Of a stretch of DNA of 64,000 bases, positions 6,826-31,385 are shown piece by piece; position 1 is the first letter of the stretch, and every line of letters starts with the position of its first letter. Origin of the DNA: Bdellovibrionota bacterium (GTDB taxonomy: Bacteria; Bdellovibrionota_C; UBA2361; JAAYZI01); NCBI GenBank assembly GCA_050950765.1, contig JBMNIF010000003.1, positions 192,001 to 256,000 of the forward strand, given 5' to 3'. The position numbers were made by a program, and so were the translations under genes. The notes beneath the pieces were generated by a model. That model worked only from the letters and a program-made list of their open reading frames with translations, did no database searches and had not been told where the DNA came from.

Positions 6826-7990
6826 GTTGAGCGGGCGATACTACAAAACGACTTAGCTAGACCTGTACGGGGGGGTAAAAATCTGGTGCCACCCTTTGGT
6901 TTGCGCTTTGGGTTGGCTAGGCACTGGTGCCACCCACCAGTGCTAAAAGACTCTAAAATCACAACAGCTAATAATATCAAGACGTTGGCAAAAACCAAAA
7001 ATCTGGTAGTTTTGGTGCCACCCTTCAGTTGGGGCAGTTCAGCTAGCTTTGTCACTGGTGCCACCCTTTAGTGACGACTGGATGGGCTGATACTACAGAA
7101 CGACTTAGCTAGACCTGTACGGGGGTTAAAAATCTGGTGCCACCCTTTAGTTTTGCCGCTTTGGGGCTAGGCTTTGGTGCCACCCTTTAGTTTTACCGCT
7201 TTGGGTTGGCTGGTAGTTTTGGTGCCACCCTTCAGTTTGGGCAGTTATCACTGGTGCCACCCTTTGGTTTGGCAGTTTTGGTGTTTGGCAGTTTTGGTGC
7301 CACCCTTTAGTGACGACTGGACGGGCTGATACTACAAAACGACTTAGCTAGACCTGTACGGGGGGTAAAAATCTGGTGCCACCCTTCTGTTTTACCGCTT
7401 TGGGTTGGCTAGGCTTTGGTGCCACCCTTCTGTCTATGGCTGAATGGCTGGTGCCACCCACCAGTGCTAAAAGACTCTAAAATCACAACAGCTAATAATA
7501 TCAAGACTTTGGCAAAAACCCAAAATTCGGTAGTTTTGGTGCCACCCTTCAGTTTTACCGCTTTGAGTTGGCTAGGCTTTGGTGCCACCCTTTAGTGACG
7601 ACTGGGCGGGCTGATACTACAAAACGACTTAGCTAGACCTGTACGGGGGTTAAAAATCTGGTGCCACCCTTTAGTTTTGCCGCTTTGGGGCTAGGCTTTG
7701 GTGCCACCCTTTAGTTTTACCGCTTTGGGTTGGCTGGTAGTTTTGGTGCCACCCTTCTGTTTTACCGCTTTGGGTTGGCTAGGCTTTGGTGCCACCCTTC
7801 TACTCTACCACCTTTAAAAAATCCTTAGGTACTTTTTCTAGGTACTTTTTTAAAAGCACTCTTCTGAACAATTCTTCTTATATTTCAATATGTTAACTTT
7901 TAGCACAACCAATTTTTAACAAAAAATCAGAAAAAACTCGGAAGTCAGCTAACGGAGAACGGTTAAAAAAACTGGTGCCACCCTTTAGCG
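6826..7990 (+). repeat. Mosaic array A: 19 exact TGGTGCCACCC cores with reused spacer modules
   Basis: Cores at 6884, 6925, 7013, 7056, 7135, 7175, 7220, 7252, 7295, 7374, 7417, 7449, 7537, 7580, 7659, 7699, 7744, 7787, 7973; between convergent genes. Confidence 0.95.
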
Positions 7991-7993
7991 TTA

Positions 7994-8485
7994 TCACCTT
8001 ACATATTCTTTAACGATATCCAAATCATTATCAACACCTTTAACAACACCATCAGGACCGATGATCACGATAGTTGGTATCGCAATCATACGAAATGAAA
8101 CATAAGCCTCATCACGAACATCATTACCGGAGAAGGCGTGTTTTACTCCATCCAACCCTTGCAAATAAATCATATTTTTTAAGGTTGATAATCTATCAAA
8201 TCTGTCAATACTGACCGCAATAAATTCAGTATTCGGATTTTTATGTGTTCGGGCATAATCGCTTAATTCAGTGATAAGAGTTTTTGAACGACTACACCAC
8301 GTCGCCCAAAACATTAAAACGACCGTCTTGCCACGGTATCGACGTAAAGAAACATAATCACCGTCAAGGAATGAAACCCTTGCCGCAGGAGCTGTTTTAT
8401 TCACTAAAGCTAACGTTTCATCAGAGATAGTTGAGCAACCTGTTAATAGAGAAAATAATAAGGAGGCTAAAAATATCTTTTTCAT
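7994..8485 (-). CDS. TlpA/ResA-like thioredoxin-fold lipoprotein (CxxS)
   Basis: Lipobox LLTGC; YRGKTVVLMFWATWCSRS; IPTIVIIGPDG. Confidence 0.85.
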   Translation of the reverse strand: MKKIFLASLLFSLLTGCSTISDETLALVNKTAPAARVSFLDGDYVSLRRYRGKTVVLMFWATWCSRSKTLITELSDYARTHKNPNTEFIAVSIDRFDRLSTLKNMIYLQGLDGVKHAFSGNDVRDEAYVSFRMIAIPTIVIIGPDGVVKGVDNDLDIVKEYVR

Positions 8486-8671
8486 GATCAATAAATCCAA
8501 AATGATAGACAAAAAAAGTTGAAAGATTTTTTTCCTTTCAGTGACAGACTTGACTACCTCAAACGCGGTAATCTAGATCTATAAAAATACGATCGCAACA
8601 AACAAAAAGCATTTACCATTTTAAGCGGTGTACTTCACTTGGAAGGGTTCCATTGCAGCAGTAGAGACTTC

Positions 8672-9256
8672 TTACAGTTCAACAACTTCTCGACCTATCC
8701 GATCAAGGAGTTGTACAGGCTGCGGACGCATCATCCATAAAAGAAGGATACTAAAAACAGTGAGGAGAAGAGCACTGCCCACGCTCTTTAAAACAGTCAC
8801 ACTAAGCACAAAGCCCACTGAGGATATTAACCCAGCAAGCCCATAACAGATAATTAAAAAGGGGGTGTACCTTCTAAGGACTTCAATAATTCTCACCTCC
8901 CTTTCTGTAATCTCCTCTACTGCTGCCGTAGGTATAGCAAGTTTTATATTGTTTTTTAGGGCTGCTATAAATCCTTCAGAAAAGTTAGTTTTTTGATATA
9001 TTTTCTTCAAAAATTTTGTAGAATCGATCCTTTTACAGATATAAAAAACAACGAGTACCCATAATAAAGCAAAAAAATACCGTGGCATTATAAAAAACAC
9101 ATCGCTGGATGGCAGCTCACCTCTTTCGACGGCATATTCAACCATAGAATTGCAGACGAAAAGATTTATTAGATCTCCCATTATAATAGAGCCCCATACG
9201 ATCGTAAGCACTATCTGTTGTTTTTTGACATATTTAGTTGTCGCACTTGAAAGCAT
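8672..9256 (-). CDS. Hypothetical membrane protein
   Basis: 194-aa ORF with about four hydrophobic segments; AAGGTG RBS-like sequence upstream. Confidence 0.65.
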   Translation of the reverse strand: MLSSATTKYVKKQQIVLTIVWGSIIMGDLINLFVCNSMVEYAVERGELPSSDVFFIMPRYFFALLWVLVVFYICKRIDSTKFLKKIYQKTNFSEGFIAALKNNIKLAIPTAAVEEITEREVRIIEVLRRYTPFLIICYGLAGLISSVGFVLSVTVLKSVGSALLLTVFSILLLWMMRPQPVQLLDRIGREVVEL

Positions 9257-9339
9257 ATCTGCACACCTTTTAATAAAGCATAAATAGTAACTTCTTTCTT
9301 GTTAATATAATAAGATAAGATCTAGACTCCCTTCAATCT

Positions 9340-9812
9340 GATATTTTTAAAAACCTTTTATCGCTCGATAAGGCCCTAATATCTTGTCTATTGTTGATTT
9401 ACTGATTGATAAAAGCAGCGCCTTTGATTCTTCCTTATATTGCCTAATTTCGACCTCCTCTAGCCCTTTCATCCAAGCTGCCATGTCAGCTTTCATAATT
9501 GCTGAACAGGGATACTCTTTTATTCGCCACACCTGCCTAAGAGCTTGCTAAATTTTGGATCTTCGTACTATTTGATCGCACAAGATGTCTAATTTTACAC
9601 GGCAACCAACATTTTTGGGCTTACTTAGACGCAATGATTGATGTCCAGTTTATTTTCAACCTTCTTTAAATATTCCTCTTTCTTCTTCTTATTTGCACTC
9701 TGATATTTACGCCTAACGTATTCTAAAAAATACTCTTTTTCCTCTTTGTCCATACCCTCTTTGTCCATAATCCCTCCCCACTATTTCAGTGACATTAATT
9801 ACAAGCCATAAC
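9340..9812 (-). pseudogene. Degenerate transposase remnant (integrase-fold, ISNCY-like N-terminus)
   Basis: Fragments MDKEEKEYFLEYVRRKYQSANKKKK and W..KEYPCS...LLLSISKSTIDKILGPYR, interrupted by stops and frameshifts, resemble the N-terminus of ISNCY-type transposases. Confidence 0.55.
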
Positions 9813-10217
9813 GTAAGAATATAAAAATTTACTTAGTTTTTGAAAGCTAGTAAAATACCAGCGGTAAATATTGGTGCAATAAGTATCGATATTTATTTGC
9901 TGACATTGGCGCTTTGCACTGGCATTGCGTCAACAAGGTTCATACTGAATGTTTCACAATAAATAATCGAATTCGATTATCGTGAGGATTTGGTGTGTCT
10001 AAAAGTGCAAAAACAGTCTGCCTAGCGCAGTAGCTTTTACAGCTACGGTGATCTTGGCAGTGTATGTATGGTGTGCTGCTTGGTTGTATTGACTTCTTAC
10101 TAACTTAAAGAGAGTCAAGATAATTACAGCATAAAAAATGAAGCAATTATACTTTTAGCGTAATTGCTTTAAAACAATCCGCTAGTACTAGCTTCTGCTA
10201 GTTAGGAAGGACTTGCT

Positions 10218-11018: not shown

Positions 11019-11059
11019 ACGACACACTAGATGTTGCTCGTCAGCAACAATCTTTTTTG

Positions 11060-11089
11060 GAAGCTCTCTTCGGGGAGCTTCTTTTCTTT
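11060..11089 (+). terminator. Rho-independent terminator
   Basis: GAAGCTCTC-TTCG-GGGAGCTTC followed by TTTTCTTT. Confidence 0.85.
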
Positions 11090-11469
11090 AACGCGTTTGG
11101 AGTGCTACTACAATTGATTTCCCAATAAAGTATGGAAATTATGACAATGAAACAATTAATGGATTGGCACTTTAATGTTCGAAAAGGAATGTATTTCGAT
11201 CGAAAAATCTCCGTAGTTTCATGTTCAATTTATCTGAGTGATATTATTGAAGATGGATTTTGGAACTATGCCTTTGTTCCCTCTAGCGTGGATTTATCAG
11301 AAAAACTAGAACTTATTTCTAATCAATTCATCTCTCTGAATCGAAATCCATGCATTTATACAGTAGAGAATGATACACAACAAAAAACTGCTGATTTACT
11401 AACAAAAGCGGGCTATGTACCTTTGTCAGAAGAATCTTTTATGACATACACCTTGAAAAGTAGTATCAA

Positions 11470-13297
11470 CCTAAATTCCGCAATTTTTATCTTTTCTCCA
11501 TTCCAGAAATAAGCCACCGTATTTTTTATTGATATTTTAGTTAGTTATATATTTTTCTATATTGACATTTCCTGTTTGTATGGTATGATTGCCCTATACA
11601 TATTAGGGAGGTTTTTTATGAAAAAAATAACTAAAAAAGTTGACTTACCAGATAGGCAAATTGCTCGTAAGAAAAACAAAAATGGGACTACTTATATCTA
11701 TTACAGGATGAACTTTCGTCGTGAAAATGGAGAGCCTACGTTTGATGAAATAGGTATAGGGAAGCTAGATGAAAGCGGTAAGAAATTAATTCCTAATAGA
11801 AATTACTATGATTTGTTTCCAGATGATTCTAATAGATATGTTATTAGCAATAAATCTTTTGGTCTTACTTATGTTTTAAATAAGATTGTAAAAGATTTAA
11901 GGTTAGACAAGACATTGCTTTCAATTTTTGGAAATGACACATACGAGATTTTAACTTTAGCGTTTTATATTCTAGCAAATGGAAATGTAGTATCACATGC
12001 TTCAAGTTGGATAGATGATAGTGTCTTACCATATGAAATTTCTGAATTAACAAGTCAAAAAATAAGTCGTCTTTTTGAACGTATTGACTACGAGAAAAGA
12101 CTTAATTTTTTTAAGAAATGGACGAAGCGATATTTAGCTCAAGAATGTTGGTATTATGACGTAACTTCCATATCTTCTTATAGTAAAAAAATAAGCATAT
12201 TGGAGTTTGGCTATAATAGGGATATGGATAAATTGCCGCAAATAAATATAGGTATGTGCTACGGCTCTACAACGAAGCTTCCTTTATTCTATCAAGTTTA
12301 TAATGGCAGCATTACAGATAAGACATATTTTAGTTTTCTTTTAAGAGACTTTCCATTTATTAGTCTTAATAATCGTATTAACCTTGTTACGGATCAAGGT
12401 TTTGTGACGCAAGATAATTTAGCGGAAGTAGCAAATGAAGAAGGGCAAAAGTTTGGACTACTTTGTCCTTTGCCACTATATTGGAATGACGCTAAAAGAA
12501 TATTAGAAAATCACACTGCACTTATTAAGCAAGATGCTAATTATATAAAAGGAACCTCTACTTTTGGTTGTTCTGTAATAGATACTGTTATGGGACAACC
12601 TGTAAAGATTTATGTTTATTACAATATGGGAAAGGCGCCATATGAGATAGTTCAATTTTACGAGAAAATTTCTAGAATGGAAGAAGAGTTAGAAGAACTG
12701 AAAAAATTAAAATACTCTTTGCTGGATCGTAAAAAATATAGGAAATATTTTGATATTAAAATAAATGAAGATGGTTTCACTTATGAAAAAAAATCAGAAG
12801 CTATAGATGAATACTTGAGAAATTGTGGCTTCTTAATTTTGATTGGTATTGGTTGTGATTCAAATCCGAGTGAAGCACTTTTTCGTTATCGTCAAAAAGA
12901 TGTAATTGAAAAACAATTTTTCCAGCTAAAAAATGAAATTGATTTTAGAAGACTTAAAACACATAATCTTCAAACCACAGAAGGAAAACTTTTTGTTGGA
13001 TTTTTAGCTCTTATACTTAGAAGTTATATTCTTAATTTACTTAAAAATGATACAAGGCAAAAAAAGTTTAATATACCTGATGTCATTAAAGAGCTTCAAA
13101 AAATTAAAGTTATAGAAACTAAAAATGGCAGTAAATTAATGGTTCCGTTAACAAAAAAACAAAAGGATATTTTGAAAATTTTCAATATTGAAGAAGATGA
13201 CTTTCTAAAAAGTATTTTTAAGAAAAAGTAAGATTATACCGCTCGAAAGCTACCTTTAAAAACACGTTTGTATGGTATAATTTCGCGGGAATTCAGG
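11470..13297 (+). mobile_element. IS1634-family insertion sequence (copy 1)
   Basis: Terminal IRs CCTAAATTCC / GGAATTCAGG; 6-bp TSD TATCAA at 11464-11469 and 13298-13303. Confidence 0.92.
11618..13231 (+). CDS. IS1634-family DDE transposase
   Basis: YYDVTSISSYS, FGYNRD..LPQIN, TDQGF, YRQKDVIEKQF..LK, EGKLFVGFLALIL; GGGAGG RBS before ATG 11618. Confidence 0.92.
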   Translation: MKKITKKVDLPDRQIARKKNKNGTTYIYYRMNFRRENGEPTFDEIGIGKLDESGKKLIPNRNYYDLFPDDSNRYVISNKSFGLTYVLNKIVKDLRLDKTLLSIFGNDTYEILTLAFYILANGNVVSHASSWIDDSVLPYEISELTSQKISRLFERIDYEKRLNFFKKWTKRYLAQECWYYDVTSISSYSKKISILEFGYNRDMDKLPQINIGMCYGSTTKLPLFYQVYNGSITDKTYFSFLLRDFPFISLNNRINLVTDQGFVTQDNLAEVANEEGQKFGLLCPLPLYWNDAKRILENHTALIKQDANYIKGTSTFGCSVIDTVMGQPVKIYVYYNMGKAPYEIVQFYEKISRMEEELEELKKLKYSLLDRKKYRKYFDIKINEDGFTYEKKSEAIDEYLRNCGFLILIGIGCDSNPSEALFRYRQKDVIEKQFFQLKNEIDFRRLKTHNLQTTEGKLFVGFLALILRSYILNLLKNDTRQKKFNIPDVIKELQKIKVIETKNGSKLMVPLTKKQKDILKIFNIEEDDFLKSIFKKK

Positions 13298-13774: not shown

Positions 13775-15539
13775 CCTAAATTCCCGTAAAATTATAGTAT
13801 ACGTGCCCGCATCTTCATTCTTCGTAGTAATGATACGATTTTTATTTTTTGAATTGTTCCACTCCTATGGCTTTTAAAATGTTTCTTTGCATCTTGGATA
13901 TGGTCAGTAAATCTCTTTTCCCTTCAGAATGAAGTTCGCATATGTTTTCTAATTGCTTAATTGCTTGTTTTATTGTCAAGTTTGAAGTTTCTTCATCTTC
14001 TTTGAGCTTTTTAAGCATGACGCTTCTCACAATAAGGCTAATAAAGACTACAAATGTTTTTCCTTCTGTTGTTTGTACATAATGTGTGCGCATACGACGA
14101 TAGTCCATGCCATTTTTTAATTGGTCAAATGCTTTTTCAATAACATCTTTTTCACGGTAAATAGTCAGGGTTTCTTCAGCTGATAAACTTATGTCCGTTG
14201 ATATGAGCGCAAAATAACCAAGCTTTGATTTGTATTCATCAATGGCATCATAGTCCATCTCGTAGCTAATATCGGTTTTTCCATCCTGATGTATTTTGAA
14301 ATATTTAGTTTGACTTGGTTTAAGCTTCTTTTGTTTTACGATTAAATCTAATGCCTCTTTTTTTCGTTTAATGTCAGCATACAATGCTTTTTCATCCAAC
14401 CTAGCCTTTTCAGAGTTGTAGTACATGTGGACTTTAACTGGAATGCCCTCATAGTTTGCTGTATAACTCCTAGCATAAATATCAACAGAGCTTATGAATT
14501 CCCTAGAAGAAAAAGGCTTCTTAATAGTCTTCTCAATCAGTTCTTTGTAGAGCTTGTAGTTTTTTGACAATAGGGATAATGCTTTGTAGCCCGCATCGCA
14601 AACCATCTTAAAGTTCTTTGGAGACAATAGCCCTTGATCTATAACAATCCGTAGGTTCTTTAAACCGAAGTGCCGACTGTAGGCAAGGATTGACTCAAAG
14701 TAAGATTTATCAACGATACTTCCAGGATAAATCTTGTAAAATAAGGGCAACCTTACATCTTCTCCATAGTACATTCCTAAGTTAATTTGAGCCAAATTGT
14801 CATCATCACGATTATATCCCCATTCAACCAAATGCATGTCGTTGCTATAAGAAGAGATGGATGTGACATCATAAGCGACATAACCATCTGTTTTATTGTA
14901 ATTTGTCCATTTCTCAAAAAAACGAATACGCTCCTCCTCAGTAATGGAAGCAAAGAACTCACTGATTGCTTGAGAACTTAGGGGAATTAAGTCTTCATGA
15001 TAATTACTTTGCGCCCAATTAGGGTAATCCATCATGACATTGCCCTGACTTAACATATAAGAAGCTAAAGAGAGAGCCGCCTTTGCTCTCTCTTGACCCA
15101 TAGTATTTACCAAGAGATTGGTTAAACTTAACTTTTGAGCAATTTCCATAAAGCTCGAAATATAGCCAACAGATTGGACTATTTTCTCTGGAGCATGCTC
15201 TGGGAATAGATCATAATAGTTCCTGTTTGGGATGAGCATTCCCGTTGCGTTGTCAAGTTTCCCAATACTTTTTTCATCTGAAGTAGGCTGACCTTTTTTG
15301 TTTCGATAAGCCCTGAGAGTGTAGTAAACGTACCTCGTATCTCCCTTTCCTTTTTTATAAGTTATTCTTTTTTTTGGTAATGGAACCATTTTTTTTGCCA
15401 CAAAACCACCTCCTTGTATACTGCCATTATAGTATACAAAAAGAAAAAAAGCAAGAGATTAAAATCAAATAAATGCTTGAAATCTCTTGTTTTACAGACT
15501 TTTTTAACTAGGTATACTATGGAAACTCAGGAATTTAGG
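13775..15539 (-). mobile_element. IS1634-family insertion sequence (copy 2, divergent from copy 1)
   Basis: Terminal IRs CCTAAATTCC / GGAATTTAGG; 6-bp TSD TTAAAA at 13769-13774 and 15540-15545. Confidence 0.92.
13842..15401 (-). CDS. IS1634-family DDE transposase
   Basis: AYDVTSISSYS, WGYNRD..LAQIN, IDQG, YREKDVIEKAF..LK, EGKTFVVFISLI; AGGAGG RBS before GTG. Confidence 0.92.
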   Translation of the reverse strand: MAKKMVPLPKKRITYKKGKGDTRYVYYTLRAYRNKKGQPTSDEKSIGKLDNATGMLIPNRNYYDLFPEHAPEKIVQSVGYISSFMEIAQKLSLTNLLVNTMGQERAKAALSLASYMLSQGNVMMDYPNWAQSNYHEDLIPLSSQAISEFFASITEEERIRFFEKWTNYNKTDGYVAYDVTSISSYSNDMHLVEWGYNRDDDNLAQINLGMYYGEDVRLPLFYKIYPGSIVDKSYFESILAYSRHFGLKNLRIVIDQGLLSPKNFKMVCDAGYKALSLLSKNYKLYKELIEKTIKKPFSSREFISSVDIYARSYTANYEGIPVKVHMYYNSEKARLDEKALYADIKRKKEALDLIVKQKKLKPSQTKYFKIHQDGKTDISYEMDYDAIDEYKSKLGYFALISTDISLSAEETLTIYREKDVIEKAFDQLKNGMDYRRMRTHYVQTTEGKTFVVFISLIVRSVMLKKLKEDEETSNLTIKQAIKQLENICELHSEGKRDLLTISKMQRNILKAIGVEQFKK

Positions 15540-15639: not shown

Positions 15640-15800
15640 TCTACTGGTGTCACTGGCAGGCTTGTCACTGGCGCTCTCTCTACTGGTGCCACCCTCTTTT
15701 AACCTTTTAAATTAGCAATTATTATAGGCTTGCTTTTAACCTTTTAAATTAGCAATTATTATAGGCTTGTCACTGGTGCCACCCTTCAGCTGGCCAGCTA
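15640..15800 (+). repeat. Mosaic array B (2 exact cores plus variants)
   Basis: Cores at 15684 and 15774; two copies of the module CTTTTAACCTTTTAAATTAGCAATTATTATAGGCTTG. Confidence 0.85.
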
Positions 15801-16949: not shown

Positions 16950-17312
16950 ATGCCACAAGGAAAAAATACATTCGTCGCAGATGACGCTAATCCTATTTTA
17001 TTAACCCCTACTGCTATTGCCATGGTCAAAGAAGCTATCAAGGAAGATGGTCAAGTCGGAGATGGCTTAAGAGTTGCCGTAGCAGGTGGCGGCTGTTCAG
17101 GCTATCAATATTCACTTGATTTTGAGCAGAAAAAACGTGATGAGGATGTTATTTTAGAATACGACGGTCTTACAGTTTATATTGATCCAATTAGCGCCTT
17201 CTATCTACGTGGCACAATCATTGACTATGTTTCTAATGAAGAAGATTCAGGGTTTAAATTTAACAATCCGAACGCGCACTGCAGAACCTGCAGCGGCTGT
17301 TCATGTGGCTAA
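16950..17312 (+). CDS. A-type Fe-S cluster carrier (IscA/ErpA/HesB family)
   Basis: LRVAVAGGGCSGYQY, LRGTIIDY, GFKFNNPNA and C-terminal cysteines. Confidence 0.92.
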   Translation: MPQGKNTFVADDANPILLTPTAIAMVKEAIKEDGQVGDGLRVAVAGGGCSGYQYSLDFEQKKRDEDVILEYDGLTVYIDPISAFYLRGTIIDYVSNEEDSGFKFNNPNAHCRTCSGCSCG

Positions 17313-17315
17313 AAC

Positions 17316-17778
17316 TGGTGCCACCCACTTTTAACCTTTTAAATTAGCAATTATTGCAGGCTTGTCACTGGTGCCACCCTTCAGGGACGACTGGACGGGC
17401 TGATACTACAAAACGACTTGGCGGGGGTTAAAAAACTGGAAAAAACTGGTGCCACCCACTTTTAACCTTTTAAATTAGCAATTATTGCAGGCTTGTCACT
17501 GGTGCCACCCTTCAGGGACGATTGTGGCTAAAACTGGTGCCACCCTTTAGTTGGGGCAGTTCAGCTAGGGGCAGTTTTGGTGTTTGGCAGTTTTGGTGCC
17601 ACCCTTCAGGGACAACTGGACGGGCTGATACTACAAAACGACTTAGCTAGACCTGTACGGGGGTTAAAAATCTGGTGCCACCCTTCAGGGACGATTGGGC
17701 GGGCTGGAACTGCAAAACGACTTGGCTAGACCTGTACGGGGGTTAAAAAACTGGAAAAACTGGTGCCACCCTTCCAGT
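17316..17778 (+). repeat. Mosaic array C (8 exact cores)
   Basis: Cores at 17316, 17369, 17447, 17500, 17535, 17594, 17673, 17761; begins just after the IscA-like stop codon. Confidence 0.95.
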
Positions 17779-18351: not shown

Positions 18352-18645
18352 TTACTGCCAGCCCCCCTTGTCACTGGCCTTGTCACTGGTGCCACCCACC
18401 AACGCTAAGCCCTTGTCACTGGTGCCACCCACCAGTACGACCTGCGTTGCTGTTTTTGCTCTTCTGACAGCCTTTTTTCTGCTTACACCACTGCCACCAC
18501 CCACCAGTACGACCTGCGCCCTGGCCCCACCCACCAGCCCCAAGCCCTTGTCTCTGGCCTTGTCTCTGGTGCCACCCACCAGTACGACCTGCGTTGCTGT
18601 TTTTGCTCTTCTGACAGCCTTTTTTCTGCTTATGCCACTGCCAGC
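18352..18645 (+). repeat. Mosaic array D (3 exact cores plus variants; internal direct repeat)
   Basis: Cores at 18387, 18420, 18567; segment AGTACGACCTGCGTTGCTGTTTTTGCTCTTCTGACAGCC present twice; downstream of the Y1 gene. Confidence 0.9.
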
Positions 18646-18794
18646 AAGCTTAACTCACCTTAAATTTCCTTAAATTTGATACTACAACTTACGATTAATT
18701 GACTATTTTCAGATTTTAGATAGATCTTCCCTGTTGAAATTTAGATTTCATATTATTATCGGGTCAAAAAAGCAGCTTTTTTAGGTTACTTTTT

Positions 18795-19763
18795 TCAGGT
18801 CGCCACCCCGCAAAGCCTACCTACAATAGGCATACTCGGACGAAATGCCCCATAAACAAACTTAGCTGAAATATCACCTTGCTTCCACTTCTTCCAAGCC
18901 TTTCTACACTCTTCACAAAAAGCCTTATATTCTGCTATCGCTTTTATCCGTAACTCCTTAATCCAACAAATTAAATACGGCGTACGTGTCTTCTTCTTAG
19001 GTACATACGCAATATTTATCGATTGTTGCTGCACTTTACGCATCCCCATAAAATGCCCCTTCCTTTCAAGTGCAATCTCTTCTTCCCTTTTTGAAATCTC
19101 TGTCATTATTGTTTTAAAGATCTCTTCAGACGTAAGATTTTTTGATTCTTCAAAACAATTCTTCCAAGCATCAGGGGTAATCTTAAGCTCATGACAAGTG
19201 TGCGGAAACATATTAAGCATTTTTAATAAAATAGCATCGCTTATTTTATGAAGTCTCTGCGGTAACTTACGTAAATTAGTAGAAGAGGTATACTTACCCT
19301 GCACTGTTAAAGAACCTGATTTATACATTCTAAAACTACTACACCCTTCCCAATCATCAGCGTGTGCAACAAGGCCTGCTTTTACAGGATTTATATAAAT
19401 ATAGACTATCTTATCGATAACATCATTATGAGTTAACAAACGTTGCTCCTTAAAACGTCCATCCCAAACGTTTCTCCTATATTGCGGCGTTAGTTTCTTA
19501 ATAGCACGTGCAACTGCACTTTCCATCTCTCCCATAAATGAAGAGATGTGCTTTCCTTCACCAACTAATATCATGTGAAAGTGGTTACTCATCCAATTAA
19601 AATGAGCAATTCTAACACGATGGTGCTCTTGGCAACGTGCCATAATCCCTAACAGGATCCATTTCATAAAAAGGCGTGCTAGAAATGGCAAGCCAGATAA
19701 TGTTCTATTGGTGACATGTACCACCATTTTATTAGGATTTCTCCTATCTCGACGATTTCTCAT
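18795..19763 (-). CDS. Stand-alone Y1 HUH transposase-like protein (RAYT/TnpA-REP-like) with C-terminal extension
   Basis: HVTNR; HUH motif MSNHFHMIL; VWDGRF; catalytic-Tyr helix YIYINPVKAGLV..DDWEGCSS; no tnpB next to it; GGAG RBS. Confidence 0.9.
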   Translation of the reverse strand: MRNRRDRRNPNKMVVHVTNRTLSGLPFLARLFMKWILLGIMARCQEHHRVRIAHFNWMSNHFHMILVGEGKHISSFMGEMESAVARAIKKLTPQYRRNVWDGRFKEQRLLTHNDVIDKIVYIYINPVKAGLVAHADDWEGCSSFRMYKSGSLTVQGKYTSSTNLRKLPQRLHKISDAILLKMLNMFPHTCHELKITPDAWKNCFEESKNLTSEEIFKTIMTEISKREEEIALERKGHFMGMRKVQQQSINIAYVPKKKTRTPYLICWIKELRIKAIAEYKAFCEECRKAWKKWKQGDISAKFVYGAFRPSMPIVGRLCGVAT

Positions 19764-19803
19764 AAGACAACTCCAGATGAAAAATAAAAATAATCAATAA
19801 ATT

Positions 19804-19839
19804 GGCAGAATTGCCGGTTAGTTTGGCAGGATTGCCAAA
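19804..19839. promoter_or_regulatory. Tandem palindromic sites upstream of the Y1 gene
   Basis: GGCA-GAAT-TGCC (19804-19815) and TTTGGCA-GGAT-TGCCAAA (19822-19839). Confidence 0.45.
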
Positions 19840-19912
19840 TTCTAACGCTTAATTGTCGCTAGAGTTGGGATTTTATTGTGGGTAAAAATGAAAAAAGTTT
19901 GGAGATTGGGAT

Positions 19913-20195
19913 TGGTGCCACCCTTTAGTGTGAGGATGGTGTTAGAGAAAGAAAAGAAGGGTGGCACCAGTTTACCCCCGTGAAGACCTAGCTGATTCGT
20001 TTTGCAGTTCCAGCCCGTCCGGTCGTCCCTGAAGCGGTCGTCCCTGAAGGGTGGCACCAGTTTTTTAACCCCCGTAGAGATCTAGCTGATCCGTTTTGCA
20101 GTCCCAGCCCGTCCAGTCGTCGTTAAAGGGTGGCACCAGTGACAAGCCTGCAATAATTGCTGATTTAAGGGCAAAAAGAAGGGTGGCACCAGTCT
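19913..20195. repeat. Mosaic array E (1 forward and 4 reverse cores; orientation switch)
   Basis: Forward core at 19913; reverse GGGTGGCACCA at 19959, 20049, 20128, 20181. Confidence 0.93.
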
Positions 20196-20217
20196 AGCCA
20201 GTTGAACAGGCAACTAG

Positions 20218-21266: not shown

Positions 21267-22943
21267 ATGTTTTTATCTACTAAGCAATGCCGCTTCAAAG
21301 ATTCACCTATGAAAACACAACCAAAATACATTACTTTCCTTGGCTCAACTGTCTCAGTTTTATTCACTCTGATAGGATTTGTCTTGGTTCTAATCTACGC
21401 CACACTTTATGAAGCACTACAAGGAACAGAATCACCTCACCGTCACGTTTACGATAATCTTTTCTTCGAAGCTATCATCCTCCTAATAGCTGCCAACCTC
21501 TTCATCGCTATTTTGCGCAATTTATCCTCCATAAAAAAAAATTATGCCCTACTCTTAATTTTTCTAGGGCTGGAACTCCTCATCGCAGGAGGGCTTTACA
21601 CCAAACATTACGGCGTACACGGCACAGTACTTTTAGCACAAAATGAAAAGAGCTCTGAAATCGTTAAGGAAAATTCTTATAATTTGCTAATTGAAGAAAA
21701 TAACAAACTTAGATCAATCCCCTTTGATTCACTAAAAAAAGGGCAGATTGTCGCCAAAAATGCTTCAAAAACATTTACAATTGATGATGTAATGAATAGA
21801 TCGTACCTTGATCTACGTGTCCATAATTCAACACAACGTAATCTTGGTATAGATCTAACTTATTCAAATACACAAAACAACACCGAACACAGATTCTGGC
21901 TGATTGCGAATAGCCCTTTCCCTGAGATTCGTAGCGAACGACTTTTTGCTGATACCCTACTCGCGCTTAGAACATTAGATACAGAGCCACTTGATACGCC
22001 ACAATTAAAGATCATCTCAAAGCAAGATAATACCATCTCCATTTTTAATCCCTCTAAAGATCTGAATAATATTACCATTGCTAAGAAATATAAGTTTGAA
22101 AATTTTAAATATTTTCAGAAAGCAGAGGTACATAATGGCGCTCTTGAAGATACAGCATCTTTAAGCAACCCTGCTGTTGAGTTCGATATTATAGAGATCA
22201 AGAGCGACGCTAGAGAAAGTCATACCCGCTTTGCCTTTATCCCGAATTTACCATCTTTACACGGCAAAGCTTCAGATAAAAGCTTTCCACTCTGGATTGA
22301 ACTTGTACCTGCGGTGACAGATTTTCCACAAACATTAACAAAATGTGTATTTGAAGCCTCCGCCACTGACGAGTGGTATTACAGTACAGATTTGACAAAC
22401 AAATTTCCCCTCTCAGTTGGAACAGAGATTCAACTTCCTAACAACAAGAAAATTCATGTAAATAGATTACTAACAAATGCGAAACTTCGTAGGACTGCCA
22501 TCCCTGCACTTGATGGAGATCCCGCACTTCTTATAAAAGATCAATCAGGTAAAAACAGCGATTGGGTATCACCTCTCTTCCCGCTAAAGAGATACCCAAA
22601 TATCTCCTTCTATATTACTCAAACAACACAAACACTGCCCTTTGCTATTGAACTACTAAATATAAACAAACTTTCTCAAGGTAATTCTTTTCATCTTCCA
22701 TCATATCAAGCAGATATTGCACTACATTTAGCGCCTGATACAGAAAGTATTGCAGGTACAGTTACAGTTAACGAACCATTCTACTATAACGGCTATCGTT
22801 TCCTCCTTGATTCATACAAAGAATTTCCTGTAATAGGTAGATTTATTATCGATAGATCCCCTGGCACTCCGCTCTTATGTCTCGGTGCTACCTTAATATT
22901 ACTCGGCATTATTACTGCTTTTCTAGGCAAAAAAGGAGACTAG
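21267..22943 (+). CDS. Cytochrome c biogenesis protein, ResB/CcsB-like
   Basis: Three N-terminal TMs, large periplasmic domain, VNEPFYYNGYRF and SPG + C-terminal TM; upstream of ccsA. Confidence 0.75.
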   Translation: MFLSTKQCRFKDSPMKTQPKYITFLGSTVSVLFTLIGFVLVLIYATLYEALQGTESPHRHVYDNLFFEAIILLIAANLFIAILRNLSSIKKNYALLLIFLGLELLIAGGLYTKHYGVHGTVLLAQNEKSSEIVKENSYNLLIEENNKLRSIPFDSLKKGQIVAKNASKTFTIDDVMNRSYLDLRVHNSTQRNLGIDLTYSNTQNNTEHRFWLIANSPFPEIRSERLFADTLLALRTLDTEPLDTPQLKIISKQDNTISIFNPSKDLNNITIAKKYKFENFKYFQKAEVHNGALEDTASLSNPAVEFDIIEIKSDARESHTRFAFIPNLPSLHGKASDKSFPLWIELVPAVTDFPQTLTKCVFEASATDEWYYSTDLTNKFPLSVGTEIQLPNNKKIHVNRLLTNAKLRRTAIPALDGDPALLIKDQSGKNSDWVSPLFPLKRYPNISFYITQTTQTLPFAIELLNINKLSQGNSFHLPSYQADIALHLAPDTESIAGTVTVNEPFYYNGYRFLLDSYKEFPVIGRFIIDRSPGTPLLCLGATLILLGIITAFLGKKGD

Positions 22944-22948
22944 ATACA

Positions 22949-23827
22949 ATGCTATTAAATATCATTACCTGTTTATACTTCTTAATCTGCTTATTAGCAC
23001 TGTTGAAAACAACTACATGTTTAAAATTGAATACTTCCGTTCCGATTTTAACCATCATAATTTTTATAGGTGCCTTTACATTACATTCTTATATCATTGC
23101 AAGCAGAAGCAACTTACTTCTTTATCCGGCTATTACAAACACCTATGAAGTAACGGTCTTTTTGAGTTGGTGTATCGCCTTACTAGCACTTATTTTTTCT
23201 ATGTTAAAGCATAACGTTACGATTCTACACCTAATATCTCTCGTCTGTGGGGTCTTGTTACTCAATGCAAGTCTTACCCCTTTCAATCAAGAGATACAGC
23301 CACTACCAGCAGTGCTGCAAACAAAATTTTGGCTAATCTTACATGTAGTAACAATTATTTTCGGATATGCAGCAATTACATGTAGTATGGTAATAGCTCA
23401 TAAGTACCTTATAAAAAGGTGGTCAAAACCTGCACAAGCAGAGCTTATTCTGCGCCTATTGCAGATCGGCACCGTTGCTATTGGATTAGGAACAGTTCTG
23501 GGAGGATGTTGGGCAGAAGTTTCATGGGGGCGTTTCTGGGACTGGGATCCTAAAGAAAGTTGGGCTTTAATTACTTTTTTAAGCGCACTAACAATACTTT
23601 TACTATATCACCAAAGTATCATTACAAAACGGGGATTAGCTTACGGAGCTATCATCTCTTTTCTTTTTATATTGATGACTTGGTACGGCGTTAATTTTAT
23701 TCTACAATCTGGCTTACACAGTTATGGATTCGGATCAGGTGGAGGAGCCGTCGTTGTCGTATATTTAATCTGTGAATTAATTTTCCTTATGAGGCTTTCA
23801 GGCTTTTTTATAAAATTTTTTAAATAA
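22949..23827 (+). CDS. ccsA: Cytochrome c biogenesis protein CcsA/ResC
   Basis: WWD domain GGCWAEVSWGRFWDWDPKESWALI, WLILHV, GLHSYG. Confidence 0.93.
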   Translation: MLLNIITCLYFLICLLALLKTTTCLKLNTSVPILTIIIFIGAFTLHSYIIASRSNLLLYPAITNTYEVTVFLSWCIALLALIFSMLKHNVTILHLISLVCGVLLLNASLTPFNQEIQPLPAVLQTKFWLILHVVTIIFGYAAITCSMVIAHKYLIKRWSKPAQAELILRLLQIGTVAIGLGTVLGGCWAEVSWGRFWDWDPKESWALITFLSALTILLLYHQSIITKRGLAYGAIISFLFILMTWYGVNFILQSGLHSYGFGSGGGAVVVVYLICELIFLMRLSGFFIKFFK

Positions 23828-24554: not shown

Positions 24555-24870
24555 TGGTGCCACCCTTTAGTTTGGGCAGGATCGGCTGACTTTAGCTCGG
24601 CTGCCACTGGTCAGTAGTTTTGGTGCCACCCATTAATCCGCGCAGCCATTTTTCAAATAGGACACCCAAACTCTAAAACTATAACATCTAATAATATCAC
24701 GATGTTAGCAAAAGCTTAAAATTGACAGATCTGGTGCCACCCTTTAGTTTGAGCGGGATCGGCTGACTTTAGCTCGGCTGCCACTGGTCAGTAGTTTTGG
24801 TGCCACCCACCAGTAAAACGGGTTCGACAGGTGGTTAAAAATTCGGTGCCACCCTTCAGTTGACCAGCTT
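24555..24870 (+). repeat. Mosaic array F (4 exact cores and 1 variant)
   Basis: Cores at 24555, 24621, 24732, 24798; CGGTGCCACCC at 24844; duplicated module GGATCGGCTGACTTTAGCTCGGCTGCCACTGGTCAGTAGTTT. Confidence 0.93.
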
Positions 24871-24916
24871 GAAGTTTAAAAAAAGTTCTTGGTCTCGGAA
24901 AGTCGACTCAAGATAA

Positions 24917-27001: not shown

Positions 27002-27064
27002 CTATGGTTGTTTTTACTCGCAAGCGATTGTAGTGCAGCTCCAACTCTTCTTTCGCTTCTCCTG
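27002..27064 (-). repeat. Degenerate copy of the 3' end of the TPR gene (27426-27490)
   Basis: TTTTTACTCGCAAGCGATTGT...AACTCTTCTTTCGC present at both positions, one on each side of array G. Confidence 0.85.
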
Positions 27065-27079
27065 ACTTCTCTTTAAACT

Positions 27080-27385
27080 AAAGGGTGGCACCAAATTTTT
27101 AACCGGCTGTCCAGATCTAAGCGATTCGTTCTGAAGTTTCAGCCCGCTTAATTCTCACTGGTGGGTGGACGATAGTCCTTGAAGGGTGGCACCAAATTTT
27201 CCACCTGCCGAACCCGTTTTAGTGGTGGGTGGCACCAGCTGCAAAGCCAGCTAAAACTGCCAGATCTACCCCAATTAATGGGTGGCACCAAAACTGCCAA
27301 ATTTTAATTTTCTGCCAACATCTTAATATTATTAGATGTTATAACTTTAGAGTTTGGGTGCCGTATTTAAAAACCTCTGCCGCTC
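27080..27385 (-). repeat. Mosaic array G (4 exact reverse cores)
   Basis: GGGTGGCACCA at 27083, 27184, 27227, 27280; modules shared with arrays A, F and H. Confidence 0.92.
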
Positions 27386-27431
27386 TAAAAGGTAGGAGGA
27401 TCGTCTGAAGGATGAAAATTTCTATCTATAG

Positions 27432-28562
27432 TTATTTTTTACTCGCAAGCGATTGTGCTGCCGCATCAAACTCTTCTTTCGCCTCCACAGCACGCCCTGT
27501 CCGTTCAAAAAGAAGCCCTAAATTGCGATGAGCGGCGGAATTTACAGGATTAAGTTTAAGAGACTCTTTTAAAGATTTTTCAGCTAAGTCATATTTACCC
27601 AACTCAAGTTGAGCCCAACCCAAGACCCCTAATAACCTAGGGAGATGCGGATCATTCTGAAGCAACTTCTCCTTAGCTTCAATAAGCAACTCTTCAGCTT
27701 GAATCTCGGAGTTTTTGCGAATTTTAGAGATCGCAAGATTAATTTTTGAATCGAGATCTGACTTATCAAGCTCAACAGCCCTACTAAAAGCTAATTCGGC
27801 TCTGTCATTCTCTCCAAGCTTATCATAAATCACCCCTAAAGCCCGAAATGGAGCAGCGTCCTCTCCATTTAATTCAGTTGCCCTCGTAAGATTTTTTAGA
27901 GCAGCTTCATAACGGTGCATTTTTTTATTGAGAAGCCCTGAAAAAAGCAAAGTGCTATAATTAGCACCATCTAAATCAAGCGATCTTTTATACGCCTTTA
28001 ATGCCTCTTCACTCTTCTCCATTTTTTCATATAGAACACCTAAATTAAAATACGTCAGCGCATTTCTTTCATCAACTTCTTGAGCTTTTTTAAGATACTT
28101 CAAGGCACGATCGATCCGATCTGTTTTCTCATAAATCACTGCCAACCCCTGCAACGCTCTCACTTCAGATCTATCTTTATCTAAGACCTCTTCATAAAGT
28201 TGTCGCGCACTATCAGGATCCGCAGTCTTTAAACGAACTTCAGCCAAAGCCAAGAGAAACTCTTTTCGACGTTCTTTCTCCAACGCCTTCTCAAAAAGCG
28301 CGATAGCCTCCTCTTCATGACCTTTTTTAAATTCGATTAACCCCAAATTAAAGTTTGCTTCAACTAAATTTGGACACAATTCTAAAGCTTTTTTATAAAG
28401 TTGAGCCTCTTCATCTGAAGCATCAGCAAGATCAACTCCCCTTCTAACTAAGCGCCCCGCCTCCTCGCACTTATCTTCGGCTTTTAATATTATGGAAGGG
28501 AAGCACAGCCCTAAAAAAAACAACGCTAGAAATGAATATTTGCAAGCCTTAGGAATTAGCAT
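27432..28562 (-). CDS. Secreted tetratricopeptide repeat protein
   Basis: Signal-like N-terminus; repeated 34-aa units (ANFNLG..EEAIALFEKAL, TYFNLGVLYE..EALKAYKRSL). Confidence 0.9.
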   Translation of the reverse strand: MLIPKACKYSFLALFFLGLCFPSIILKAEDKCEEAGRLVRRGVDLADASDEEAQLYKKALELCPNLVEANFNLGLIEFKKGHEEEAIALFEKALEKERRKEFLLALAEVRLKTADPDSARQLYEEVLDKDRSEVRALQGLAVIYEKTDRIDRALKYLKKAQEVDERNALTYFNLGVLYEKMEKSEEALKAYKRSLDLDGANYSTLLFSGLLNKKMHRYEAALKNLTRATELNGEDAAPFRALGVIYDKLGENDRAELAFSRAVELDKSDLDSKINLAISKIRKNSEIQAEELLIEAKEKLLQNDPHLPRLLGVLGWAQLELGKYDLAEKSLKESLKLNPVNSAAHRNLGLLFERTGRAVEAKEEFDAAAQSLASKK

Positions 28563-29766
28563 AGATATGCCCTTTTCCCGAGTCAGCGCTTAATACACTT
28601 AAAGAATCAAGCACCTTTTGTAATTTATCTTCAGACGCAACCAGCGCAAATCGAACAAAATTTTTGTAAGCATCACCAAAAGTCCCTCCTGGTAACGCTA
28701 CAATATTAAAAGATTCCAGCAGACTATAAGTTAGATCATCTCCACTCATCCCCATAAACTCTGGAACCTCCGCCCACACGGAAGTACCAGCTTTAGGCAT
28801 GGTAACATTCCAACCGATTTTACGCAGTCCTGACACAAACATCCGACACCGTCTTCGGTATTTATCCATAATCGGCAAAGTCAGATCAGTTGTAGAGGTT
28901 AATCCTGCAGCCGCAGCATCTTGAATCGGTAAAAAGATCCCATAATCAATCCTAGATTTCAATCTTCCAAGTTTAGCTATTAGGTCAGGATTCCCAAGTG
29001 CTGCCGCCACACGCCAACCTGGAACACTATAAGATTTAGAAAGGCTGTAAATTTCGATACTATGATCCATGGCATCAGGAGTAGCCAGTAAGCTCTCTGC
29101 CGCTCCTGTGTCGTACGCCATCTCGCCATATACGAAATCATTAATAATAAAAAATCCTCTCTTAATAGCTAGTTCATGCAACTCATCATAAAATTTCCTA
29201 CTTACGACCACACCACTCGGATTATTAGGAAAATTAAGCAACAACACAGCATAACTTTGACGCGCTGTCATCTCATCAATTTCAGCAAGCATCTTACCTT
29301 CATCATCAGAGATGTGAAAGAAATCATAGTCCATTCCAGCCATATCCAATGCCGGTTGATACGTTGAATATGTTGGTGCCCCTAATAATGCTTTAGATCT
29401 CCTTGAGTCTAGGGCAGATAACGTGTTTAACACCCCCTCTTTTGATCCCATAACAGAACAGATATCTGTCTCAGGATCTAAATCAACATTGAACACAGTT
29501 CTGTATTTGTAAGCAAAAGCTTCCCTTAGTTTTCTAATACCCCGCGAAACTGCATATCGATGTCGATCCGTATGCAAAGAACTTTCAACCAGTTTATCGA
29601 GTAAAAAACGAGGCGGCTCTATATCAGGATTAATCATCGACAGATCAATTATATCCTCACCGGAATAAACCTTTTTAAGCTTCAATTTATTAAACTCTTG
29701 CAAGCAATCCACCCGTAACCACTCAAATGGATTATGCACCCTCGCTATTGCACTAACAGACATCAC
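28549..29766 (-). CDS. PLP-dependent class I/II aminotransferase (AlaC/LL-DAP-AT-like)
   Basis: HRYAVSRGI, GSKEG, NFPNNPSG, DFVY, SLSKSYSVPGWR, KSRIDYGIF. Confidence 0.9.
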   Translation of the reverse strand: MMSVSAIARVHNPFEWLRVDCLQEFNKLKLKKVYSGEDIIDLSMINPDIEPPRFLLDKLVESSLHTDRHRYAVSRGIRKLREAFAYKYRTVFNVDLDPETDICSVMGSKEGVLNTLSALDSRRSKALLGAPTYSTYQPALDMAGMDYDFFHISDDEGKMLAEIDEMTARQSYAVLLLNFPNNPSGVVVSRKFYDELHELAIKRGFFIINDFVYGEMAYDTGAAESLLATPDAMDHSIEIYSLSKSYSVPGWRVAAALGNPDLIAKLGRLKSRIDYGIFLPIQDAAAAGLTSTTDLTLPIMDKYRRRCRMFVSGLRKIGWNVTMPKAGTSVWAEVPEFMGMSGDDLTYSLLESFNIVALPGGTFGDAYKNFVRFALVASEDKLQKVLDSLSVLSADSGKGHIYANS

Positions 29767-30125
29767 GCCCCAAAATAAGCAAAATAAGAAAAAATCCCTC
29801 TAAAACAAGAATCATCACTCTCGAAACGGCACTATATAGCAACCCCCCTTTAAAATAAAGCAAATACCCGAAATTGCTGTTTTTAACACTCTATTTTCTT
29901 TGATATTTTCAGCTTTTAAAGAAGATCCCTTCCCTTTTGTTATAATTTAATAAGAAAAGAACCTTTTTAAAAAAATAATTCCCCAAGAATCCTAAAGAAG
30001 TGGATATAACGTACCGTTATTAAAAGTATTGCTGATAAATAATGCTTAATCCTTTTTATTATTTTTAACAAGGGGGCTTTCCCTTAGAAAAATAAAGAAA
30101 AGTTTCTTGAACAGAGGTATGTATC

Positions 30126-30338
30126 ATGGAAGTAATCCTTGGGAAAACAGACATCCCTAATGAAGCAGAGATCGAACGCGAGCTTGAGAAACGCCCTCGC
30201 AGTGCCACTCTCCTTAGCTTGAAATGGCTAGCTGAACGACTAAAGAAAACTAGAACAATTAAACGTGACTTAGAAAATGGTAGTTATAAAGTGGATAGCG
30301 AAAAATTAGCAAAATCCATTCTTAACGAAGAGGATTAA
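30126..30338 (+). CDS. Second FlgM-like small protein
   Basis: IKRDLENGSYKVDSEKLAKSIL matches the FlgM C-terminal pattern; GAGG RBS. Confidence 0.65.
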   Translation: MEVILGKTDIPNEAEIERELEKRPRSATLLSLKWLAERLKKTRTIKRDLENGSYKVDSEKLAKSILNEED

Positions 30339-30344
30339 GATTAT

Positions 30345-31385
30345 TGCCCCACCCCAGACATGTTTTTAAAAGATCAACGGCTTTCAATTAGGACACCCAC
30401 TTTTAGCTGGTGGGTGGCACCAGTTTTTTAACCCCCATAACAGAACCCGTCTTACTGGTGGGTGCACCAGATTTTTCCCAGCCTAAACCAAACTGACCTG
30501 CCCAAATTGAAGGGTGGCACCAAATTCCCCAAGCCCTAAGCTTTTGCCAACATCCAGATATTATTAACTATTGCAAATTTTGAGTTTGAAAATTCTTGAA
30601 GGGTGGCACCAATTTTTTAACCCCCATAGCAGAACCCGTCTTACTGGTGGGTGCACCAGATTTTTCCCAGCCTAAACCAAACTGACCTGCCCAAATTGAA
30701 GGGTGGCACCAGATCCAAGCCACCCTAGACTTAAAAGATCAATGGCTTCCAATTAGGACACCCACTTTTAGCTGGTGGGTGGCACCAGTTTTTTAACTCC
30801 CGTAGGGATCTAGCTAATCCCACTTTGCAGTCGCAGCCCGTTCAATCATCCCTGAAGGGTGGCACTAGATCTAAGCCCAGCCAAATCTGCCAGATCCCGT
30901 CTTACTGATGGGTGGCACCAAATTCCCCAAGCCCTAAGCTTTTGCCAACATCCAGATATTATTAACTATTGCAAATTTTAAGTTTGAAAATTCTTGAAGG
31001 GTGGCACCAGTTTTTTACCCAACTGACCTAGCCAAATTGAAGGGTGGCACCAGTTTCTTAACCCCCGTAGCAGATCCCGTCTTACTGGTGGGTGGCACCA
31101 AATTCATCCAGTCGCCTAAGCCGTCAAAACGGCAAAAAGAAGGGTGGCACCAAATTCCCCAAGCCCTAAGCTTTTGCCAACATCCAGATATTATTAACTA
31201 TTGCAAATTTTGAGTTTGAAAATTCCTGAAGGGTGGCACCAGTTTTTTAACCTCCGTAGAGATCCAGCTAATCCCGCTTTGCAGTCGCAGCCCGTTCAAT
31301 CATCCCTGAAGGGTGGCACCAAATTCATCAACCCAGCAGCTAAGTCTGGCAGAATCAGCCAGATCTCCCTAAAAGATCAACAGCT
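30345..31385 (-). repeat. Mosaic array H (12 exact reverse cores and 3 variants)
   Basis: GGGTGGCACCA at 30412, 30512, 30601, 30701, 30777, 30910, 30999, 31042, 31090, 31142, 31231, 31311; between convergent genes. Confidence 0.95.

Follow-up and report, generated by a model that had tools for sequence, protein, structure and literature searches.

The 64,000-nucleotide (nt) window analyzed here, positions 192,001 to 256,000 of contig JBMNIF010000003.1 of a Bdellovibrionota bacterium (assembly GCA_050950765.1), carries a gene for a 322-amino acid (aa) HUH/Y1 transposase, P0001, set between inverted copies of an 11-bp core, TGGTGCCACCC, that also recurs in arrays between genes from window position 6826 to 31385. 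The 57 exact cores of the window (shuffle mean 0.03) fall into eight intergenic clusters, every one of which has a stop codon no farther than about 150 bp away on one side or both. These counts agree with an earlier sequence-only reading of the same DNA; its statement that the core is usually followed by TTTAG, TTCAG or ACCAG stands but barely, with one of the three directly 3′ of 32 of the 57 cores. The ensemble is probably a selfish element of the TIRtron type, whose arrays would be built by nicking, copying and rejoining of DNA at the cores. The features around the gene are the following.

18795..19763, minus strand: HUH/Y1 transposase gene, 322 aa (P0001), one of six genomic copies.
18567..19969: conserved unit common to the six copies, 1,403 bp, from inward-pointing core to inward-pointing core.
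18567..18577, plus strand: downstream terminal core, 217 bp past the gene stop.
18387-18577, plus strand: core cluster 3′ of the Y1 gene, 3 cores.
18387..18566, plus strand: downstream end array, 2 cores beyond the terminal core.
18546..18569, plus strand: 12-bp tandem duplication scar ending at the TGG of a core.
18366..18389, plus strand: second 12-bp tandem duplication scar ending at the TGG of a core.
19913-20191: cluster 5′ of the Y1 gene, 1 core on the plus and 4 cores on the minus strand.
19913..19969: head-to-head core doublet with a 35-nt spacer, found upstream of all six gene copies.
19959..20191, minus strand: upstream array, 4 cores directed at the Y1 gene.

P0001 contains the motifs NHFH (H61, H63) and YIYINP (Y121) and matches PF01797 (E = 7e-7), and the 20 open reading frames (ORFs) scanned include no tnpB, as the sequence-only reading had stated. 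The catalytic core covers approximately residues 1-145, with H61, H63, W100, Y121, N125 and P126 invariant in 24 of 24 family sequences. The long C-terminal extension that had been remarked on earlier is real: these ~180 residues have no Pfam match and no helix-turn-helix (HTH) family match across the 24 family members scanned, and the part resembles unnamed clusters only, most commonly from Myxococcota (template modeling score 0.81). The AlphaFold model of P0001 (mean pLDDT 90) has its best match in E. coli TnpA-REP (PDB 4ER8; Z 13.3, root-mean-square deviation 2.9 over 155 residues), with IS608 TnpA ranking behind it (Z 8.1); nothing in this whole-model search matched past approximately residue 250, which is not evidence of a new fold. 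A homodimer prediction gave a score of 0.00 and no verdict. Against the profile NF047646 the protein scores 67 bits, below the cut-off of 80, and against the IS200 model NF033573 18 bits (cut-off 55). Its HUH motif, its Y---NP motif and a fold like that of REP-associated tyrosine transposases (RAYTs; REP, repetitive extragenic palindrome) place it in TnpA-Y1 class 2.

A profile search returned 505 family representatives with E < 1e-30, and the named relatives at 28-36% identity come mostly from Bdellovibrionota or Oligoflexia assemblies. In a FastTree tree of the core domain, the long proteins form a clade (0.94) that is sister (0.96) to one protein, L164 (NHVH/YIELNP), labeled 2.1-like by motif alone in a tree without a published subclass 2.1 exemplar. 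We also noticed by eye that a CAACTT ... CGA(T) motif, possibly a promoter or autoregulatory site, recurs 20-60 nt 5′ of family start codons (eg, L003, L005, L011, L013, L025).

The genome of the window (G000; 2.64 Mb in 5 contigs) holds six copies of the gene at unrelated loci, with 99-100% amino acid identity and 0-14 nt differences in 969. The unit common to all of them is composed of the core doublet (35-36-nt spacer), a 149-nt leader, the gene, a 217-nt trailer and the terminal core. The shared DNA stops at the downstream core, while upstream it runs into arrays whose module count and order vary from copy to copy, and three of the six copies are trailed by tandem fragments of the 3′ end; in the window, 69 nt of the 3′ end of the element have been copied again into the downstream end array (18387-18566), at 18431-18499. 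The doublet at 19913-19969 is predicted to form a 13-14-bp stem (z about -4.5), and the terminal core at 18567-18577, together with the ACCAG after it, a 6-bp stem closing on 5 nt of loop. The doublet also occurs on its own, with no gene, at C1:385498. Separately, a head-to-head core pair resembling a miniature inverted-repeat transposable element (C3:471305-471440, 114-nt spacer) starts with the element's own right-end sequence.

The core is the commonest 11-mer of the genome, with 943 exact copies (and 140 with one mismatch) in 129 clusters, of which the window's eight are a part. Module-like DNA amounts to 89 kb or 3.4% of the genome, in regions of up to 2.1 kb, and 12 of the 943 cores lie inside ORFs (crude ORF calls, here and below). 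Neighboring cores less than 400 bp apart are mostly direct, as had been noted in the window (792 direct, 18 head-to-head, 4 tail-to-tail), and the lack of a GTAG-type foot also holds genome-wide, with GT[AG]G directly 5′ of 1 core in 943. Given six gene copies and 129 clusters, the description of a stand-alone gene at the center of the arrays is an artefact of the window. The idea of a single domesticated RAYT has to be given up as well, the gene being multicopy with element-like ends. A modified form of it, in which an immobile RAYT with a host function was duplicated long ago and the six copies were homogenized by gene conversion, would suit the mainly synonymous variation (15 of 18 variable codons) and the mosaic single-nucleotide polymorphisms (SNPs), which indicate that the copies are under selection and may recombine. 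It would also suit the presence of the family in 36 of 40 relatives of the order (E <= 0.001) and the lack of a match to the element in plasmids and in viral contigs (0 of 79 candidates). We consider it most improbable, as the copies end at cores in unrelated contexts, several relatives have multicopy gene sets bounded by cores, and tandem fragments of element ends exist.

The DNA occurs in digester and bioreactor metagenomes. Short contigs of four other studies show 0 differences to parts of the window arrays and their flanks, none of them covering a whole array. In all 4 sequencing runs examined, the depth of the gene contig exceeds that of its flanks 2-6-fold, which is not counted as evidence because depth is not copy number. 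No RNA dataset was present among the sequencing runs listed for this DNA.

The most direct trace of how the arrays grow is a sharp breakpoint inside the core, which is what is new here. The genome has 248 perfect tandem duplications 8-40 bp long, 42 of them near a core, and 20 of these end at core position +3 (TGG^TGCCACCC). Another 4 end at +4 and 1 at +2, while other offsets average 0.12 (maximum 3). The scar has the form X-TGG-X-TGG-TGCCACCC; of the 25 duplications ending at +2 to +4, 24 are 8-14 bp long and 17 lack microhomology. With a second method, 17 distinct +3 sequences were found among 24 scars, while random positions gave 10 of 20,000 at +2 or more; part of the scars may share descent. 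Relatives show the same kind of trace, as 35 of 240 distinct cores carry scars, 21 of them ending at +3 to +5. In G019 and G040, which have the TGGTGCCACCC core, the breaks are mostly at +3, and with other cores at +4 or +5.

Y1 enzymes leave a 3′-OH and a 5′-phosphotyrosine. The proposed element is a long-form class 2 TnpA-Y1 gene between inverted 11-bp cores that would have spread as a unit to six loci, every core being a potential substrate for its enzyme. The enzyme would bind a core, nick 8-14 nt 5′ of TGG^TGCC and stay attached to the 5′ end, while the free 3′-OH would prime strand-displacement synthesis into the core. The end kept by the enzyme would then receive the new strand, whose own end would lie directly behind TGG or further downstream; an end at TGG^ could come from a second cut or from the polymerase halting where the enzyme is bound. 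Each round would add one head-to-tail unit of short outer flank, core and variable inner piece, and core-core exchange and host recombination would afterward shuffle and spread the modules. The copy number, the boundaries, the association of core with protein, the anatomy of the units and the sharp breakpoint are seen in the genomes themselves; we infer that the 322-aa enzyme makes these cuts and transfers strands at the cores, that the steps follow this order, and in what way the whole element moves. The scars fit the model of nicking, copying and rejoining put forward for the BIMEs (bacterial interspersed mosaic elements) of E. coli, in which the first cut primes synthesis and a later 3′-OH attacks the first phosphotyrosine with the gain of one unit (Fig. 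7B of Ton-Hoang 2012, PMC3333891). That model predicts homology-free tandem junctions, as seen in the scars.

The anatomy of the units points in the same direction. In simple arrays of relatives a unit consists of a core, an inner-flank piece and then some of the outer flank found at that locus. Of 68 units in G027, 36 have at least 6 nt in common with the outer flank of their own array, compared to 4.9% with the flanks of other arrays, and the outer piece plus the first core bases measures 10-13 nt in 66 of the 122 simple units of relatives. One unit in G025 spans from 7-8 nt outside the core to the start of the gene, and long units are the element's own ends copied inward from either core. 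In the window, the 12 nt 5′ of the first core of the array at 17316-17771 (17304-17315) reappear at 17523-17534, a capture of local flank. In the genome as a whole, the nearest module lies in the same array for 349 of 709 modules (chance ~10) and in another array for 285, the latter showing that modules have also spread from locus to locus.

In an alternative reading, cassettes are shuffled from core to core: the enzyme would cut only at TGG^ on one strand, excise single-strand circles and reinsert them at other cores. The gene would then be no more than one big module, bounded by the cores at 18567 and 19913, which are on the same strand. Modules do act as units between cores, with the flanks on either side of a core nearly independent, and the gene lies between two same-strand cores in 6 of 6 copies, next to which the gene-less doublet at C1:385498 can be set. 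One-mismatch variants are ~3 times commoner per position in TGG than at other core positions, and 897 of the 943 cores have W at position -2 and 925 have Y at -1, as in a target motif; a precedent exists in Fig. 7A of Ton-Hoang 2012 (PMC3333891). However, core-free duplications of 8-14 bp and the local outer-plus-inner units are left unexplained, the counts of trimmed cores do not peak at TGCCACCC (17 at 8 nt vs 12, 36, 40 and 68 at 7, 9, 6 and 5 nt), and most relatives have inverted ends only (direct repeat of at least 10 bp at 16 of 64 loci). As the whole explanation this is unlikely, but in mature arrays such shuffling probably runs alongside nick-copy-rejoin amplification.

Another possibility is that the Y1 element only seeded cores, and that slippage, unequal crossover and gene conversion by the host grew the arrays, which were kept as REP-like 3′ elements. 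This would be in line with the strong local similarity within arrays, with the arrays in G019 where no gene was detected, with 56 module-like regions of G000 that lack an exact core, and with near linkage equilibrium in a 68-nt module family (22 biallelic sites in 89 distinct modules, r2 ~0.02-0.04 beyond 5 nt). The latter indicates fine shuffling, although recurrent mutation could also account for the pattern; a coarse breakpoint count on this module is suggestive at most, and its predicted structure is no better than that of shuffles on either strand. Array placement can be read the same way: convergent gaps hold 39 of 98 arrays of at least 3 cores, compared to 255 of all 1352 gaps, and 35 of 47 arrays in tandem gene gaps are co-oriented with transcription. 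The co-orientation may be due to single-stranded DNA on the non-template strand or to selection; there is no replichore bias (36/39 and 37/31). On the other hand, slippage requires microhomology and has no cause to stop at core +3, and the core stays exact (943 vs 140 with one mismatch) though the 68-nt modules differ on average at 17.6 of 68 sites. Growth by the host machinery alone therefore appears quite improbable to us.

Across the relatives, enzyme and core belong together, as the sequence-only reading had suggested. Of 88 loci, 73 have a near-full gene, 9 of which were dropped for short flanks; among the 64 scored, 35 are flanked by an inverted repeat of at least 10 bp, compared to 24 of 187 mismatched pairs. 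Among the alignments listed, homology between alignable paralogues stops at or near cores, and relatives often carry tandem end arrays besides the inverted cores. The core bounds 6 of 6 copies in G000 and also homologues at ~28-30% identity to P0001 in two other genomes: two gene copies in G025, each between TGGTGCCACCC inverted repeats, and one in G040 with one mismatch in the downstream core. Elsewhere in the family the core differs with the protein, varying on one theme (YTG(G/T)W-N5-6-C-W-H-C, by eye). Four relative cores searched over 41 genomes are genome- or genus-specific: that of G027 occurs 104 times there and once elsewhere, that of G031 7 times and nowhere else, that of G007 11 times and twice elsewhere, and that of G009 17 times with 6 in its two congeners. 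The G027 arrays are direct with up to 15 cores. Core and protein distances correlate in a Mantel test (rho 0.53, p 0.001, 33 loci, cores picked by eye), a correlation that reflects shared descent of linked DNA and does not by itself prove co-evolution. Gene-less head-to-head core pairs with spacers of ~45-155 nt were also seen in G019 (L029, L031-L035) and G007 (L107), where the pair occurs twice, 2.3 kb apart, with a common 8-nt outer flank.

A second Y1 gene exists in G000 (C1:418239-419291, single copy, 350 aa, subclass 2.3-like motifs). Inverted doublets of a motif of its own, GGACACCC, lie on either side of it, with ~30 more copies in the surrounding 15 kb (C1:408,900-424,100); Quentin 2018 (PMC6006769) found no REP-like flanks for subclass 2.3. 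This protein could in principle build or co-build the arrays, considering that TTAGGACACCC has 129 occurrences, that a main core is present no more than 300 nt away from 153 of the 194 AGGACACCC sites, and that its motif and the main core share CACCC. The motif rides inside the main arrays, 3 times in the window, mostly in opposite orientation and inside few module types (121 of 153), which is as expected for captured cargo. No main core occurs from C1:404,640 to 425,198 around that gene; among 221 motif sites 1 scar ends inside the motif and 2 end before it; and in other genomes the main core bounds genes of the P0001 family. The second system is thus likely cargo and a weak rival, its authorship of the arrays being very unlikely. 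Spaced near-identical repeats with GGACACCC are also found at C2:1243412-1243610 and C3:4800-5097, distant from both Y1 genes.

A number of points weigh against a TIRtron-type element that builds arrays by nick-copy-rejoin. The evidence is all genomic, and a second Y1 enzyme is present in the same genome. The mosaic SNPs mean that gene conversion may inflate the similarity of the copies. No 10-bp inverted repeat flanks 29 of the 64 family loci, the TGGTGCCACCC core accompanies three proteins that branch separately, and cores are few in most carriers (0-37 copies of TGGTGCCACCC in other genomes vs 943 in G000). Inner plus outer flank fully explains 38 of the 122 simple units of relatives (54 within 2 nt), and capture of at least 10 nt of local 5′ flank was seen in 4 of 57 G000 arrays with unique flanks. 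Flanking target-site duplications were not found (6 of 151 vs control 8). No empty insertion site was found in G000 or four other runs, and there is no congeneric genome among the relatives; one G000 search gave only module-to-module pairs among the matches listed, and another gave 6 rows, all in one local 230-bp repeat (C2:454-455 kb). That repeat (C2:454,130-455,270, ~230 bp) has three copies with a core-less 68-nt module and one without, possibly a filled/unfilled pair with an unclean junction. Finally, 37 cores are present in G019, where protein, Pfam and alignment searches all failed to find the gene, on its face the same arrays in a genome without the gene, which the sequence-only reading had named as grounds for rejecting the idea. 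Five G019 contig ends, however, share one core-flanked sequence, whole or in part. This hints at a collapsed repeat, though it is no proof of one, and makes it likely that the genome has a multicopy element that was not assembled.

The remaining arrays of the window are the following.

6826..7983, plus strand: mosaic array, 19 cores (span 6884-7983), between dacA-like and thioredoxin-like genes.
15684..15784, plus strand: array, 2 cores.
17316..17771, plus strand: array, 8 cores, starting 3 bp past the stop of an iscA/erpA-type gene.
24555..24808, plus strand: array, 4 cores, with the second repeat GGACACCC at 24660.
27083..27290, minus strand: array, 4 cores.
30391..31385, minus strand: mosaic array, 12 exact cores (30412-31321) and degenerate ones, with GGACACCC at 30391 and 30756.

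Rfam gave no match across window positions 6000-32000, and promoter and terminator scans stayed at chance level. The neighbors of the Y1 gene are flgM and a metallophosphoesterase gene. Elsewhere in the window, two convergent DDE_Tnp_1 transposases (11576-13231, plus strand; 13842-15401, minus strand) occupy a stretch of 31-36% GC and are unrelated to the core arrays. A D-Ala-D-Ala carboxypeptidase (5578-6745) is split into Peptidase_S11 (5578-6390) and PBP5_C (6335-6745) in different frames near an A/G run at ~6325-6335, by a real frameshift or an assembly error. ResB-like and cytochrome c assembly genes of the system II type adjoin at 21267-23827.

The weight of the finding lies in a breakpoint that could be mapped, a class 2 gene that appears to be mobile and the large extent to which the cores have expanded. 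There is no settled account of how REP-like repeats arise and multiply, and the nick-copy-rejoin model of 2012 was a proposal. The element offers a minimal 11-nt substrate with a predicted junction, TGG^TGCC, and a predicted second site 8-14 nt upstream, and the family provides many natural enzyme-core pairs of differing sequence that are usable for swap tests. With six near-identical core-bounded copies, the gene is clearly a candidate for mobility within class 2 and may connect IS200-type elements with domesticated RAYTs. More tentatively, the long-form family, found in Bdellovibrionota- and Myxococcota-type hosts, might be an autonomous insertion sequence (IS) on the RAYT side of the Y1 tree, with inverted ends and rolling-circle-like copy-and-join from either end, the same reaction at any core having filled the 3.4% of the genome. 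If so, the TGG^ scars would be a footprint, left in a genome, of the way in which REP/BIME arrays have been proposed to amplify.

Compared with known systems, the candidate new type of system put forward in the sequence-only reading is not new as a type, because RAYT-like genes between terminal inverted repeats (TIRs) that seed repeat families are already described as TIRtrons or TIRYTs (Di Nocera 2013, PMC3733652), which Quentin 2018 (PMC6006769) equates with TnpA-Y1 subclass 2.1 and RAYT group 1. Di Nocera 2013 also notes REPs clustered in tandem together with DNA from their flanks, as well as TIR families that occur in groups. We found no paper on this core or on the long-form family in a search that left most subscription journals outside, and the supplements of Quentin 2018 gave no match for five myxobacterial or Bdellovibrio names or for the motif. 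As in the TIRtrons described, a RAYT-like HUH/Y gene lies between inverted repeats at fairly fixed distances without GTAG REPs (6 of 6 copies), and repeats occur in single, dimeric or grouped families, here with 943 cores in 129 clusters. The NH[YF]H, W, Y---NP and SS motifs and the HUH-to-Y distance of 60 are those given for subclass 2.1. The core, however, is TGGTGCCACCC and not GGGGWSAS, the TIR motif of most, though not all, of the examples given; there is no Bac_DnaA_C or HTH match but a distinct 180-aa C-terminal domain, by comparison with Pfam families; the six copies are near-identical, whereas the mean intragenome identity reported for the subclass is 49%; and the 943 cores are nearly all direct, against families described as "moderately abundant."

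Subclass 2.3 (median 325 aa) is similar, as far as it is described in Quentin 2018, in its long C-terminal tail and several copies per genome, but was ruled out: P0001 has an HUH-to-Y distance of 60 (H61-Y121) and lacks the 55-aa insertion (110) and YVDLNP/TS, features that the second Y1 gene of G000 does have. The IS200/IS605 TnpA proteins (IS608, ISDra2) share the Y1 HUH fold, high-identity multicopy spread and the lack of a detected flanking target duplication. They differ in having Y---Q where P0001 has Y---NP, a length of ~150 aa, about half of that found here, LE/RE hairpins in place of inverted ends, and often tnpB, and the arrays here are without replichore bias; subclass 1.1 was rejected on the NF033573 score and the absence of Y---Q. 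IS91, ISCR and Helitron elements make one-ended copies of variable length from a fixed end, carrying adjacent DNA, and have longer, unrelated HUH proteins and asymmetric ori/ter ends. Copies here are likewise one-ended, of variable length and with adjacent DNA, but both ends appear to initiate them.

The E. coli REPtron (TnpA-REP/RayT, BIME-2; PMC3333891, PMC8266576) is described with the same intergenic mosaic tandem arrays, local amplification and spread, and capture of flanking DNA. Its REPs, however, are 20-40-nt GTAG-footed hairpins in inverted doublets, compared to one short core in direct repeats here; its gene occurs once per genome and is described as one that "does not appear to transpose as a unit," whereas the present one is multicopy; and TnpA-REP cleaves at CT. 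A canonical REPtron (subclasses 2.2, 2.4, 2.5, 2.7, 2.8) was ruled out on six gene copies and the lack of GT[AG]G-footed inverted-doublet REPs. In summary, the element is a TIRtron in layout, with a class 2 TnpA-Y1 allied to subclass 2.1 and an unnamed C-terminal domain, that builds intergenic mosaic arrays like a REPtron with BIME-2 and spreads like an IS.

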